Assembly: GCA_964016885.1 (NCBI GenBank)
Contig: OZ024741.1
Coordinates: 16,864,001 to 16,928,000, forward strand
Origin: Eledone cirrhosa
Taxonomy: Eukaryota
Length of the DNA stretch: 64,000 nucleotides
Direction of reading: 5' to 3'
In this document: piece by piece, positions 1,845 to 8,312 of the stretch
Numbering within the stretch: the stretch's first letter is position 1
How the letters are laid out: every line of letters begins with the position of its first letter
Notes under the pieces: generated by a model
The model's database searches: none
Seen by the model: the letters and a program-made list of their open reading frames with translations, nothing else
What the model was told of the DNA's origin: nothing
Made by a program: the position numbers and the translations under genes

Positions 1845-2038
1845 GGAAAATGTATGACCCCGGCGGCAGAGCTCAAGCCGTTTCGACGGCTATTTCTGTA
1901 TTTCAGAAATAGCCGTCGAAACGGCTTAAGCTCAGCCGTCGGGGTCATACATTTTCCTATTACCCACTCTACTACCCTAAGTATTGAGTACATTGGTGCG
2001 TTATGGTCCATCTGGTTCCTTACCATAACTCCATCGTT
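1845..2038 (+). mobile_element. (TA)n-embedded palindromic element, copy 1
   Basis: ~113-bp imperfect palindrome (1845-1957) plus conserved tail tattacccactctactacc...ggtgcgttat...ggttccttacc...cgtt; (TA)n on both sides. Strand assignment is arbitrary. Confidence 0.85.
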
Positions 2039-2633
2039 ATATATATATATATATATATATATATATATATATATATATATATATATATATATATATATAT
2101 ATATATATATATATATATATATATATATATATATATATATATAATGGTCAAGAAGGCATATATATATGCCTTCTTGACCATTTTTTTCAGTTTGTATGGC
2201 GTTTTAACATATTGTTTAGCTCTAGTTTTCTTAACTATTGGAGCGCTTGCCAGCATGTCTACGATTTTGCGTTTCGTTTCGATTTTTCTACCAGCCGAGA
2301 TACGATTCTCGCTGAATTTATATTTATATATATATATATATATATGTATGTAAGCGTCAGCTGCATTTCCTTCTTGTTTTTAACCCGTCCACTTACCACC
2401 TCTTCCCCCTCCTCCTCTTTAGCAATAAAAATGCTGATATGTGGTGAATGTAGTTTTACAGAACTGATGTCGCTAAATAACTGCTTATTATGTTAAGCTG
2501 TATTCAGTCGCATCTATCTATACATATATATATGTGTGTGTGTGTGTGTGTGTGTGTGTGTGTGTGTGTGTGTGTGTGTGTGTGTGTGTGTGTGTGTGTG
2601 TGTGTGTGTGTGTGCGCGCGTGCGCGTGTGTGT

Positions 2634-2729
2634 ATACAGGGTCCCCCAAAAATGAATAAACACTTCAATAAATATTCTAATAAATATTGCCTGTACAACG
2701 TGTGTATACATTTTGGGGGGACAGCATGA
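2634..2729. mobile_element. Short mariner-like MITE remnant
   Basis: TIR-like ends tacagggtcccccaaaaatgaataaacac and gtgtgtatacattttggggggacagcatga. Confidence 0.5.
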
Positions 2730-2890
2730 ACACACACACACACACATATATATATGCATATATGTATATGCATATATATATATTTGTATATATATATATA
2801 TATATATATATATATATATATATATATATGTATGTATATATATATATATATATATATATATATATATATATATATATATATATATATATA

Positions 2891-3066
2891 GGAACCAGTA
2901 AGACCCCGACAGCTGAGCTCAAGCCGTTTCGACGGCTAAGCCGTCGAAACGGCTTGAGCTCAGCTGTCGGGGTCTTACTGGTTCCTATTACCCACTCTAC
3001 TACCTCAAGTATTGAGTACTTTGGTGCGTTATGGTCCACCTGGTTCCTTACCACATTTCCTTCGTT
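2891..3066 (+). mobile_element. (TA)n-embedded palindromic element, copy 2 (perfect 47-bp arms)
   Basis: 2891-2937 is the exact reverse complement of 2939-2985. Same tail as copy 1; (TA)n flanks. Confidence 0.9.
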
Positions 3067-4037
3067 ATATATATATATATATATATATATATTTAATACA
3101 TAAACAGAGAAAGCCTTAAGCGATACTCTGACCAACTCCATCTCACTCAACAAACATTAGGATATACCTAAGTATCATCCCAATTTAGTGATTGGGGTGG
3201 TAACTAATCATTTAATAAATTTTTCAATGAACAAATTTCATTATTTCTGGAGACAGCATATATATGTGAAGGTATGTATATTTCCTCTGCTAGTTTGTAA
3301 TATTTTTACATAGATCTATATGATATACATACCAACACACATATATATCCTAGAAACGATCGTAAAATGATGAATTTTTTAATATAAGGAACTTGTTCTT
3401 TGTTTTTATTCATTGTTTTTATTAATTTATATATATATATATATATATATATATGAATTTTAGTACAGCATTAACGAAGCTTTAGAACACGGCCAAGTTA
3501 ACGAACACAGAATATGTAGCTTTAGCACTCGGATGGGGAAAAGAACCCCAGAGTAATAACAATACGTTCAGACAGCTTAGCAAATCAAATATAGCGGTCG
3601 GCAGTCCAGCCGCATCACTAGAGCAACGAAAATACAGGACCCAGGAAAAGATTTTAGACTGACCTGGACAAAGCGGTGAGGCTGAATGCAAAATATATAA
3701 TGTACATCGTATATCACACAATATACATCACATACAACACCCAACATCAGCGCTAAGTTACTGCAAATCCAAGATCGACAAATTCCGCTTGCAGGAGTCT
3801 GCAATATAACTATATATATATATATATATATATATAGTTATATATATAGTTATAGAAATAACCAAAGAGTGCTTAGAAATACATTGTTTTATTAGCTAAC
3901 AGTGTTTCATATATATATATATATATATATATATATATATATATATATATATATATATATATATATATATATATACATATATATATATATATATATATAT
4001 ATATATATATATATATATATATATATATATATACATA

Positions 4038-4200
4038 TCATCATCATCATCATCATCATCATCATTTTACGTCCGTTTTTTCCCTGCTTGCAAGGGTGGG
4101 ACGGGAACTGATTCTGGTTTGATTTCTACAGTTGGATGCCCTCCCTAACACCAACCTCATTTACAGTGAGTGATGGGTGCTTTTTTGTCGTGGCACCTCC
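4038..4200 (-). mobile_element. RTE-associated SINE/LINE 3' end with (GAT)n tail
   Basis: (CAT)n run followed by ttttacgtccg...ggatgccctccctaacaccaacc, resembling the RTE-type 3' 'ggatgcccttcc' motif. Confidence 0.5.
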
Positions 4201-5553: not shown

Positions 5554-5669
5554 ATATATATATATATATATATATATATATATATATATATATATATATA
5601 TATATATATATATATATATATATATATATATATATATATATATATATATATATATATATATATATATAT

Positions 5670-5850
5670 ATAATCCGAACAAAGTGAAGGTATTACATAT
5701 GAGATTTATTGCTCAACCCAGTTACAAATGTTTCCCAGGCAGCCAGCTCGTGATCTGGGATTCATCCCAGACCAGACTCCATGTCTGCCTGATCCTCATA
5801 CCAATGTTAACACAACAAAAATCACATCGAATCTGTGGACGAACCAGCCA
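5670..5850. repeat. ~175-bp direct repeat, second copy at ~6265-6442 (unclassified element, possibly LTR-like)
   Basis: gagatttattgct...ccagttacaaatgtttcccaggcagcc...accaatgttaacacaacaa occurs in both copies; AATAAA on the minus strand. Confidence 0.7.
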
Positions 5851-7218
5851 GACACAAACAAGCATATAGAATGACCAATCGCGGGCCTAGAATCCAGCGG
5901 GCGCACTTATCCCGAGCAATTCAAGGAAATAACCGTTATAAACAATAAGAAAAATAACCCTTTAGGTCCGAAGGGTCAGCTTCGAGTGTAATGTAGTCCG
6001 TATCGGTGGCGCGGTCAAAAGCACACTACCGCATCCGTTTAGTAAATGAGTCCATGTACTGTACCATCCTACACAGGTAAGTGTTGCTATCCGGTATTGA
6101 TATGTCCTTAGAAGAAGATGCGCAGGTAAACATCTCCATGATACTCAGCAGTAAACGCTCTACCCAGGGGGGGGGGGGAGCATTATACGTGTAAAAGATT
6201 CAGTAAGTCCGGAAAAAACTGTCGAGAGAACCAATGTCAGCACTCGATGCAGAGCTGAGTGTATATAATAGGAATAAAGTGGAGATGTTACATAGGAGAT
6301 TTATTGCTTAATCCAGTTACAAATGTTTCCCAGGCAGCCGGCTCATGATCTGGGGTCATCCCAGACCAGGTTCCAAGTCTGCCTGATACTCAGACCAATG
6401 TTAACACAACAACAATCACATCAAATATGTGATCGAACCAGACTAGAACTGTTTCATTGGAAGGAAATAATCAGGAAAGCCTGCTGTCATTGTGATACGG
6501 TGGTATTTATAGGTTTTCTGGTGGTAGGGGGAGGTGGTGATTGGCATGGGTGGAGGTCATTGGCCGAGGGATTTTAAGAACAGGCATTCTTTGAAAAATC
6601 TAATTTTAGAGAGAAATATACATAGTGACAAAAATGTAAAAGGCATTTACACTAAGCACTGATAGACAACCATATACTGACAACTACGTTCACACTAACT
6701 ACCTATAGACTAACATATACATACTAACAACCACACCTGTTTTTAGGGTTCATTTATTCTAAGGAAACAAAGGGATTTCATTAAGTGGCTGTATTACAAG
6801 GCGACACACACACACACACACACACACACACACACACACACACACACACACACACACACACACACACACACACACACACACACACACACACACACACACA
6901 CACACACACACACACACACACACACACACACACACACGCACGCACACAATATATGTTATATCGTACTTTCCCACTCATTCTTCTCTTTATGTATCTAAAC
7001 ATAAATACATAGATACCTTGCAATGATGATTAATCTCATTTGTATATATTCCATTAAAGGAATATATTTCACCATAGGTATCTATATTTAAGATTCTCAT
7101 TAATTTTAATATCTTACCTCCGTAACTATGTGTGTTTACACTCTTTACAAATTATCCACTGTTTGATGTGTTTATTTTCTATATCAATCGACTTTTAATT
7201 TAATGTTATATATATATA

Positions 7219-7587
7219 CTAGCCAAATTACCCGCGCCTTGCTGCGTTTCACACTTTTTTTGTAAGAAAATGATGATTGATTTTAAATCAGTGATATAAT
7301 TTATGGAGAAAAAGTCCATTAGGGTGTCTTAATATTATTGAAATTTGCTGAAATTTCAATGAATCGGCATCATATCTTGTCATTTACCTATGGTTTAAAT
7401 TTCATATAAATCGTAGGGAAAATATTTTCGGCAGGGGTTTGATTAAAATGAAATATACTTATCCAAGTACCCTGGGCAATGTAGTTTCAGAATATATATG
7501 GTTATGGGGGGGGTCTATTCTCAAAACCATAGGAAGAGTTCGTGAACAAAGAAACAGACAGACAGGAATACAAATTTATATATATAT
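7219..7587 (-). mobile_element. Non-autonomous Helitron-like element
   Basis: The minus-strand 3' end reads ...cgcagcaaggcgcgggtaatttggCTAG|t (GC hairpin plus CTAG). An internal acagacagacag microsatellite lies near the other end. Confidence 0.55.
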
Positions 7588-7748
7588 AACGAAGGAAGTG
7601 TGGTAAGATACCAGGGGAACCATAACGCACCAGAGTACTCAATATCTAGGGTAGTAGAGTGGGTAATAGGAAAAGAGTCAGGACCCCGATTCCAGAAATA
7701 GCCGTCGAAACGGCTTGAGCTCTGCCGTCGTGGTCTTGACTCTTTTCC
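7588..7748 (-). mobile_element. Palindromic element copy 4 (inner arm partly deleted)
   Basis: Reverse complement of the family tail, then ggaaaagagtcaggacccc ... ggtcttgactcttttcc(TA)n. Confidence 0.85.
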
Positions 7749-8139
7749 TATATATATATGTGTGTGTAGATGTATATATTTATGTATAGATACATATATA
7801 AAGAGATCGAGAGGGCAAGTGTGAGGGCGAGAAAGCGTGAGTGTGCGAGTGAGACAGTAAGATTTGGTAAAACGAAAAAGAGCATCTATGAACCCTATAA
7901 AAAAAAGTTGCAAGGGAAGTAGTTAACTATTTTGCGTTGAGTTATCTCCCTTGAATCATAAAAAATTTAGGTTCTCTCCCTTGGAAATGTTTAAATGTAT
8001 TATGCAAACTTGAAAGAACTCAAGCTTGCTAGAAAATAGCAGTTAAAGTCTCCCTCGAATCTTATCCTATGGTCTTAAAGTGTGGTCACGGGCTTTATTA
8101 CTGTTTTGTTTTATACTGGAAGATAAGATGTGATAGTCA

Positions 8140-8312
8140 CGGATGGACCATTACTCACCAGAGTACTCGATACATGGGGTAGTAGAGTGGGTAATATAAA
8201 AAGATTCAGGACCCCGACGGCTGAGCTCCGGCCGTTTCAACAACTAGATCCGAACTCGGATCTAGTTGTTGAAACGGCCGGAGTTCAGCCGTCGGGGTCC
8301 TGAAATTTTTCC
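8140..8312 (-). mobile_element. Palindromic element copy 5
   Basis: tcaggaccccgacggctgagctccggccgtttcaacaactagatccga-ac-tcggatctagttgttgaaacggccggagttcagccgtcggggtcctga plus the family tail. Confidence 0.85.

Follow-up and report, generated by a model that had tools for sequence, protein, structure and literature searches.

Five related repeats lie between positions 1845 and 8312 of a 64,000-nucleotide stretch of the Eledone cirrhosa genome (assembly GCA_964016885.1, contig OZ024741.1, forward strand, positions 16,864,001 to 16,928,000; hereafter the window), at the places given in an earlier note on this DNA. They almost certainly derive from a Penelope-like element (PLE), and their palindromes are probably head-to-head, 5'-truncated fragments of this element in (TA)n, with arms that were reverse-transcribed separately from one element RNA. 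Across the 3.0 Gb of genome searched, the case for dual priming is built on three regularities: each start site supplies one arm, neither arm is systematically the longer, and the 5' stop is fixed. Site 1 is here the base right after the inner arm of a palindrome and site 2 is the end of the tail, 81 nt downstream; negative positions count upstream from site 1.

In the mechanism that we propose, the endonuclease would cut both strands of a (TA)n target and each cut 3' end would prime reverse transcription, one at site 1 and the other at site 2; both sites begin with TA. The element RNA would usually begin at an initiator-like A, position -58, so that the two cDNAs (about 58 and 139 nt) would run off its 5' end and would then be trimmed and joined nearly blunt by end-joining. 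Where the template continued upstream, by tandem read-through, as a circle or through a jump to the RNA 3' end, kilobase-long inverted insertions would be formed. The arms of an insertion would carry the same variants because they stem from the same source subfamily, and would decay independently afterwards.

The element behind the repeats

Sequence upstream of the palindrome is common to copy 3 of the window and to a second locus (L013), and a search with it gave long copies with an open reading frame (ORF). At C1:91.47-91.49 Mb, four units of 3,542-3,543 bp stand head to tail, 2-7 mismatches apart, with an intact ORF of about 719 amino acids; further tandem arrays are found elsewhere, and tandems that form pseudo-long terminal repeats (pLTRs), a trait of PLEs, are thus present. 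The window repeats are the 3' end of this 3,542-bp element and consist of half a hammerhead ribozyme and an 81-nt tail. At the tandem junctions the tail continues into the 5' untranslated region (UTR) and the ORF, which makes both arm ends internal positions of the unit. Exactly at one junction between a tandem array and an inverted arm (L202:9326 to L203:2941), a 55-bp piece of the ORF is repeated about 60 times, a product either of slippage by the reverse transcriptase (RT) or of later expansion.

The ORF encodes a telomerase-like RT followed by a C-terminal GIY-YIG-type endonuclease. Its predicted structure (modelled from 110 sequences) has a pLDDT of 92.9; the best Foldseek matches are TERT (E 5e-8), and a structure comparison (VIA) places telomerase on top with Z scores of 16.9 (rmsd 7.5, 314 aligned) and 16.4, with the RT of a diversity-generating retroelement near at 15.5. 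The GIY-YIG signature is visible in the translation as VIY...YIG strands with R, E and N downstream. The protein has 279 homologues: one of the 18 scanned exceeds the Pfam GIY-YIG cut-off, at the stretch aligned to the element's protein, and nothing is above cut-off in the other 17. Sequence and profile searches of Pfam, PHROGs and PDB with the element's own protein gave no match, which counts against the assignment.

The Hydra clade of PLEs is defined by RW(K/R), DKT and CxCx5C motifs, a GIY-YIG domain without CCHH, CxxC, CxH and (TA)n targets (PMC8557442). In the ORF we find RW(K/R) as RWR, DKT, the CxCx5C linker, CxxC, and CxH around E and N; the endonuclease has no CCHH motif and, by eye, a single Cys within the GIY-YIG core. 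As to the target, 88 of 100 arm ends are followed by at least four TA and most of the remaining ones by interrupted TA. Two further PLE traits are present, an inverted 5'-truncated copy at the 5' end, seen in long insertions, and a tail at one end only, which is carried by one arm in 43 of 44 pairs but is 81 nt long. By its motifs the element is assigned to the described Hydra clade, in which it forms a very abundant and apparently new family.

The earlier note could not assign the repeats to a known class and suspected an undescribed one, a view that it said a match to a described family would refute; the Hydra clade is such a match. A microsatellite-targeting autonomous partner, which it had thought possible, does exist, but the palindrome is very unlikely to be a non-autonomous unit of it. 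Of the proteins suggested for long copies, GIY-YIG is found, together with an RT, and Rep/HUH, recombinase and DDE are not; a rolling-hairpin or HUH element was rejected as a candidate, as the linked ORF encodes RT and GIY-YIG.

An 18-nt word of the tail has 45,349 exact matches in the genome, and a strict palindrome-plus-tail pattern has 11,619; the reversed controls have none. The number of tails is a lower bound for the genome, and the copy numbers are far beyond chance. With at least 45,000 insertions, the family contributes notably to the short palindromes of this genome, and stubs of this kind are liable to be mislabelled as miniature inverted-repeat transposable elements (MITEs), unknown repeats or hairpin RNAs.

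Arm ends and the stop at -58

The first 100 arms of the young subfamily on C1 end at site 1 in 49 cases and at site 2 in 46; three read through and two end otherwise. A set of 46 short pairs, found regardless of their tails, comprises 43 in which the two ends are of different kinds, one with site 1 at both ends and two that include a read-through arm; with the read-through pairs set aside, 43 of 44 are one-of-each (binomial p 5e-12). Long insertions follow the same rule: of 32 classified by eye, 29 are one-of-each, and the other three are one insertion with site 1 at both ends and two complex ones. The tail-bearing arm has no preferred length relative to its partner, being longer in 14, shorter in 14 and equal in one of the 29 long one-of-each insertions, with differences of up to many kb, and longer in 27, shorter in 28 and equal in 10 of 65 short elements. 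The junctions of the same 65 have a 1-nt overlap (27), are blunt (15), overlap by 2-4 nt (4) or contain an insert (19). We infer two separate primings, one per target end, which on these counts is likely. In vitro, the lizard PLE Poseidon_Ac (PAc) cleaves and extends both target strands, with reverse transcription beginning at two internal positions of the RNA on either side of the tail (PMC11167929). An ordinary MITE or other DNA transposon with terminal inverted repeats (TIRs) was rejected as a candidate: the ends differ by the tail and there is no fixed length, arms ranging from 16 nt to several units.

Several points weigh against separate priming. Three of the 29 long pairs have ends at most 20 nt apart, which fits a shared RNA end or fold-back, and one junction is asymmetric, with 46 and 20 cases in its two orientations. 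The start sites used in vitro show no difference between strands and are not homologous to the target (PMC11167929), whereas both sites here begin with TA. Finally, one arm of each kind, tail-bearing and tail-less, is likewise predicted by fold-back, in which the cDNA begun at site 2 would run off, snap back and copy itself as far as the TA at site 1, its centre being trimmed or deleted later. This is near the self-priming reading in PMC3846280 and the idea of the earlier note that one arm is re-templated from the other, and it fits the near-perfect symmetry of three elements (L154, L160, L280) and the A-run/T-run palindromes at many centres. However, 14 of the 29 long insertions have the longer arm on the tail-less side, the difference reaching many kb, so that fold-back would need kilobase deletions in half of the long cases. 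In L215 the tail-less arm has 2,650 nt and the tail arm 194 nt; for either to be a copy of its partner, long stretches would have had to be deleted later. Pairs in which both arms end at site 1 (L205, L267) or both carry a tail (L020) also speak against it, as does L154, a single case, where the arms differ only at a family-wide polymorphic site. Fold-back is therefore an unlikely general explanation. Re-templating is disfavoured because each arm often contains sequence that its partner is missing, and may at most apply to a minority of pairs with equal arms.

The second regularity is the position at which arms stop, in most of them -58 or a base short of it on the site-1 side. Young arms reaching -16, -58, -63 and -116 number 16,127, 6,295, 2,556 and 2,322, respectively: 59% of arms are lost within 5 nt, then 9% over the next 53 nt. 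In an older subfamily with a different loop the drop is at the homologous base (3,102, 2,090 and 502 arms). The step is also visible in run X2, possibly the assembly's own sample, where contig depth drops by a factor of more than ten. The A at -58 sits in a five-letter motif that at least 33 of the 35 long copies retain, with most neighbouring columns variable; in copy 3 this motif lies in hammerhead loop II at 5249..5254 (+ strand), with the A at 5251. We take it to resemble an initiator (Drosophila consensus). A TATA-like word stands at -29 from the motif, in the young subfamily only. The transcription start of Penelope in D. virilis likewise lies within the pLTR (PMC2377424). The position -58 is thus likely to be the 5' end of the element RNA.

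Arms that read through past the inner pLTR complicate this picture: in all subfamilies together, 214 reach -58 and 144 reach -63. Most of them pass -58, which means that a full-length cDNA does not simply end at this base, and long cDNAs would require a jump or a second class of template. Thirteen young read-through arms were selected for not having -63; five of them end between -54 and -61 and three between -17 and -19. L223, L264 and L273 show jumps directly after -57 to -61. One RNA run (as contigs) contains 7% of the words, and its one placed contig lies off the -58 site, which speaks neither for nor against an RNA end there. A cap could leave an extra G at -59: where both arms reach -58, the adjacent base is A in 64, G in 16, C in 15 and T in five cases (by eye, first 100 of 9,510 rows), and single-base inserts are C:G in five cases and A:T in one, but A-runs can be templated, which blurs any such mark.

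Dual priming could also operate if the RT were blocked, or the RNA broken, at -58 in hammerhead loop II. The stop does fall within structured RNA, the TATA-like word is restricted to the young subfamily, and the motif has T where the human initiator consensus has C (PMC5287114). An intrinsic block would, however, forbid the crossing of -58 by most read-through arms, and the step is sharp and falls on the same conserved base in subfamilies with different loops. Together with the start of Penelope transcription within the pLTR (PMC2377424), this makes a block or break at -58 improbable, more so than fold-back.

In sequence, the arms correspond to the 3' half of a type I hammerhead, and 88.5% of cells are paired in the alignment. 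Three pairs of stem II are compensated between subfamilies, both sides being changed; the search patterns fixed parts of stem II, and one of the 35 rows (L037) is misregistered. A three-way junction is the minimum free energy structure in two of four folds. Copy 3 contains a complete type I hammerhead-like motif (5201..5296, + strand; predicted cut after 5291) with the core C3/A8, and most long copies have U3/A8, a variant reported in Schistosoma PLEs (PMC4209133). An Rfam scan of window positions 4900-5450 gave no meaningful match. At the predicted ribozyme cut, five of 100 arms stop at -16/-17. Self-cleavage by the hammerhead is putative: the fit of arm ends at -16/-17 and at -17 to -19 to a cut predicted from sequence is indirect.

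As a tentative extension, and with considerably less probability than the dual priming itself, the PLE may run a retrovirus-like cycle on the chromosome, stubs included. Transcription would start inside the ribozyme loop at -58, so that the 5' ribozyme would be incomplete, and the 3' ribozyme would cut at -17, giving a terminal repeat of about 41 nt. A paired RT, a dimerisation for which the analogy is the PAc study (PMC11167929), would prime from each of the target strands, at two positions close to the 5' end of the RNA. The two strong-stop cDNAs would then have to jump to the RNA 3' end or circle round in order to copy the body of the element, and the tens of thousands of stubs would be failed jumps. 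If true, such a cycle would also regenerate pseudo-LTRs, tandems, tails and inverted ends in PLEs generally.

Mirrored variants and the copies in the window

The mirrored segments on which the earlier note had built its case are present in copies 1, 2, 5 and 4, and the centres in copies 1, 2 and 5 are variable as it had said. These differences are not copy-specific: the same variants recur in many arms and mark subfamilies. The variant of copy 2 is shared by 16,127 arms, 2,556 of which extend beyond -63, and by the intact element. The CGG-type context of copy 5 occurs in at least 3,102 arms, 197 of them long; its full variant set is rare in the sample (two to three arms; L082 has both mirrored changes). 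Among the fetched loci, 12 distinct arms have the motif of copy 1 and 17 that of copy 4, and a copy-1-type arm in L386 reads through into the 5' UTR. Short stubs of the copy-1-type subfamily are many and pattern-matching long arms only 25; its long form may differ upstream or be rarer.

The young set of 65 short elements, which were chosen in part for their resemblance to copy 2, has 31 unmirrored and 18 mirrored changes relative to the intact unit, and 16 of these 18 fall at two subfamily positions. Private changes are mainly unmirrored (31 versus 2), indicating that arms are not homogenised after insertion. With the two subfamily sites taken out, private divergence is 0.57% and 0.47% per arm and 0.76% for the tail. 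The unmirrored to mirrored counts of two older sets are 99 to 24 (34 of 36 elements used) and 26 to 0 (16 of 16). The eight singleton mirrored changes in the 34 old-subfamily elements are a point against, being above a rough chance estimate of one to two. Mirrored differences are subfamily differences fixed at insertion. The earlier note was thus right that arm identity could be set during mobilisation while the intra-palindrome conversion that it offered as an alternative is wrong or unnecessary; variants group by subfamily, and the arm divergence (0.47-0.57%) is similar to that of the tail.

Copy 2 has two 100%-identical and three 99%-identical copies at unrelated loci, centre included. These twins prompted the idea that the palindrome of about 180 bp is a non-autonomous unit, like a MITE or a short interspersed element (SINE), that is copied whole. 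This was rejected on the diversity of junctions and on the variants found in long elements. Centres are highly diverse, with 52 distinct junctions in 65 elements, and diverse also among the first 100 matches to the strict palindrome-plus-tail pattern; the one junction checked occurs 46 + 20 times (two orientations) and in several subfamilies, against 11,619 short elements; and all variants tested at scale also occur in long elements. Whole-unit copying is therefore very improbable, and identical twins are expected from repeated de novo joining. Least probable of all is homogenisation of the arms after insertion by intra-palindrome gene conversion, for which the mirrored singletons speak (eight in the old subfamily, two among the 65 young elements), and against which stand the dominance of unmirrored changes in all three sets and the similar private divergence of arms and tail.

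In the window, palindromes of 95-113 bp are present in copies 1, 2 and 5; copy 3 has none and copy 4 is lopsided, so that the palindrome in each copy described in the earlier note applies only in part. Poly(A) and TIRs between element ends are absent, as it had stated. The outer arm of copy 1 (1845..1898, - strand) is the inverted 3' end of the PLE; it stops at site 1 against the (TA)n target tract on its left (1801..1844) and is 5'-truncated at -54. The inner arm (1904..1957, + strand) spans -54 to -1, the 3' half of the hammerhead with the 3' strand of stem II, GAAA, stem III, the GUC cut triplet and the 3' strand of stem I. The tail (1958..2038, + strand) runs the 81 nt from site 1 to site 2 and is followed by (TA)n. 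Like tracts lie at 2038-2143, 2746-2890, 3066-3092 and 8313-8408. Right after the (TA)n of copy 1, at 2143-2181, there is a small perfect palindrome with a TA centre, its sequence unlike that of the arms.

The outer arm of copy 2 (2891..2938, - strand) matches the intact young element without difference over 49 nt, and its inner arm with tail (2939..3066, + strand) agrees at all of 128 nt with the intact tandem unit of 3,542 bp (L201-L203). Copy 3 is the 3' end of an insertion of about 960 bp (4430-5389) that includes an inverted piece of upstream 3' UTR (4430..4917, - strand; -840 to -371). The sense part (4919..5389, + strand) runs from -390 to site 2 and contains the end of the 3' UTR, the complete hammerhead and the tail. 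The two parts overlap by about 20 nt and the left side of the inverted segment is without (TA)n; the second primer thus seems to have begun internally, presumably in an arrangement like that of twin priming by the long interspersed element LINE-1. The tail-bearing arm of copy 4 (7588..7689, - strand) is truncated at -19, adjoining the predicted ribozyme cut, and its outer arm (7691..7748, + strand) spans -56 to site 1, giving arms of 56 nt (outer) and 19 nt (inner). Copy 5 (8142..8312, - strand) belongs to an older subfamily and has its palindrome centre at 8254-8255; its tail is cut at about +54 and that side is not against (TA)n, an exception to the conserved tail and (TA)n contact reported for all copies.

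Two probable tiny remnants of the family, seen by eye and missed by BLAST, lie against (TA)n: an internally deleted outer-arm end at 20120-20146 and a 10-nt tail end at 11132-11141. A 45-bp tandem array (9114-10570) has grown out of the end of a dispersed SINE-like repeat that recurs at about 8530-8840, 9010-9110, 14290-14500 and 19420-19560. The rest of the window, from 33721 to 64000, is occupied by a satellite array with a 34-bp repeat in about 875 copies, which match at 90% and have a strong strand skew.

Comparison with known elements

Non-LTR retrozymes are small, PLE-derived sequences that bear a hammerhead (bioRxiv 10.64898/2026.07.22.740005). One locus of the present family belongs here: L391 (G000:C2:356030079-356032100) is a retrozyme-like mini array of about eight head-to-tail 299-bp units, each with the hammerhead (loop II shortened at -59), the tail, the 5' UTR and the first codons. 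L392 and L273 contain similar duplications of 226 and 257 bp. The stubs of the window are inverted instead of tandem and lack the 5' half of the ribozyme; they were ruled out as retrozymes, since tandem units with a complete hammerhead are found only in L391.

The closest described relatives are the Hydra PLEs, including Hydra-1_Obim of Octopus bimaculoides (Craig et al. 2021, PMC8557442). They have the same single ORF with RT and C-terminal GIY-YIG, (TA)n targeting and a hammerhead near the 3' end, and by eye our ORF matches the printed Hydra-1_Obim protein motif by motif. The present unit is larger, 3.54 kb versus generally less than 3 kb, which is a general trait of the clade and not part of its definition, and differs in its hammerhead core. 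Compared with the printed Hydra-1_Obim (consensus 2,507 bp), hammerhead and 3' end differ throughout: the present family has the U3-A8 core, a long loop II and the 81-nt tail. It also differs from the clade, as far as described, in numbering tens of thousands, mainly as stubs of about 180 bp. The short word of site 2 recurs about 20 nt past the hammerhead in the 3' end of the coral element Hydra-2_Amil (supplement of PMC8557442) and is possibly a conserved RT start signal.

The literature searched holds no account that we could find of this family or of priming with one start site per arm; Repbase and Dfam, which were outside this search, may catalogue the family. Relative to that literature, what is new is the evidence from genomic copies that each arm has a start site of its own and that cDNAs run off at a fixed 5' end.

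Published PLE insertions combine a partial tandem, an inverted 5'-truncated copy and an optional tail (PMC8557442, PMC3846280), and PMC8557442 calls the origin of such insertions undefined. The canonical elements, Penelope of D. virilis and Pen1-6 of Adineta vaga (PMC3846280, PMC2377424), have the same head-to-head inverted copy and one-end tail, tandem arrays and an expected pLTR promoter as the present family; their printed tails have 30-40 nt, those here 81. In these two papers the palindromes are read as self-priming or left unexplained. PAc of Anolis (Frangieh et al. 2024, PMC11167929) is the nearest experimental parallel, with two internal RT starts that bound the tail and both strands cut and extended. 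It belongs to another clade and its starts lie in the ORF, without homology to the target; the main text does not tie the result to inverted insertions or run-off stubs.

A young, very abundant family offers thousands of natural reaction products that obey two sharp rules, namely that each start site gives one arm and that the 5' stop is fixed, and these rules make the formation of inverted PLE ends open to simple experiments. Dual priming, if true, would explain the long-unexplained shape of PLEs. In LINE-1 twin priming, two target ends prime on one RNA and yield an inverted 5' part. The stubs differ in that their second primer would use a fixed start downstream of the junction, so that the two arms span the same stretch of the element and make up a palindrome.

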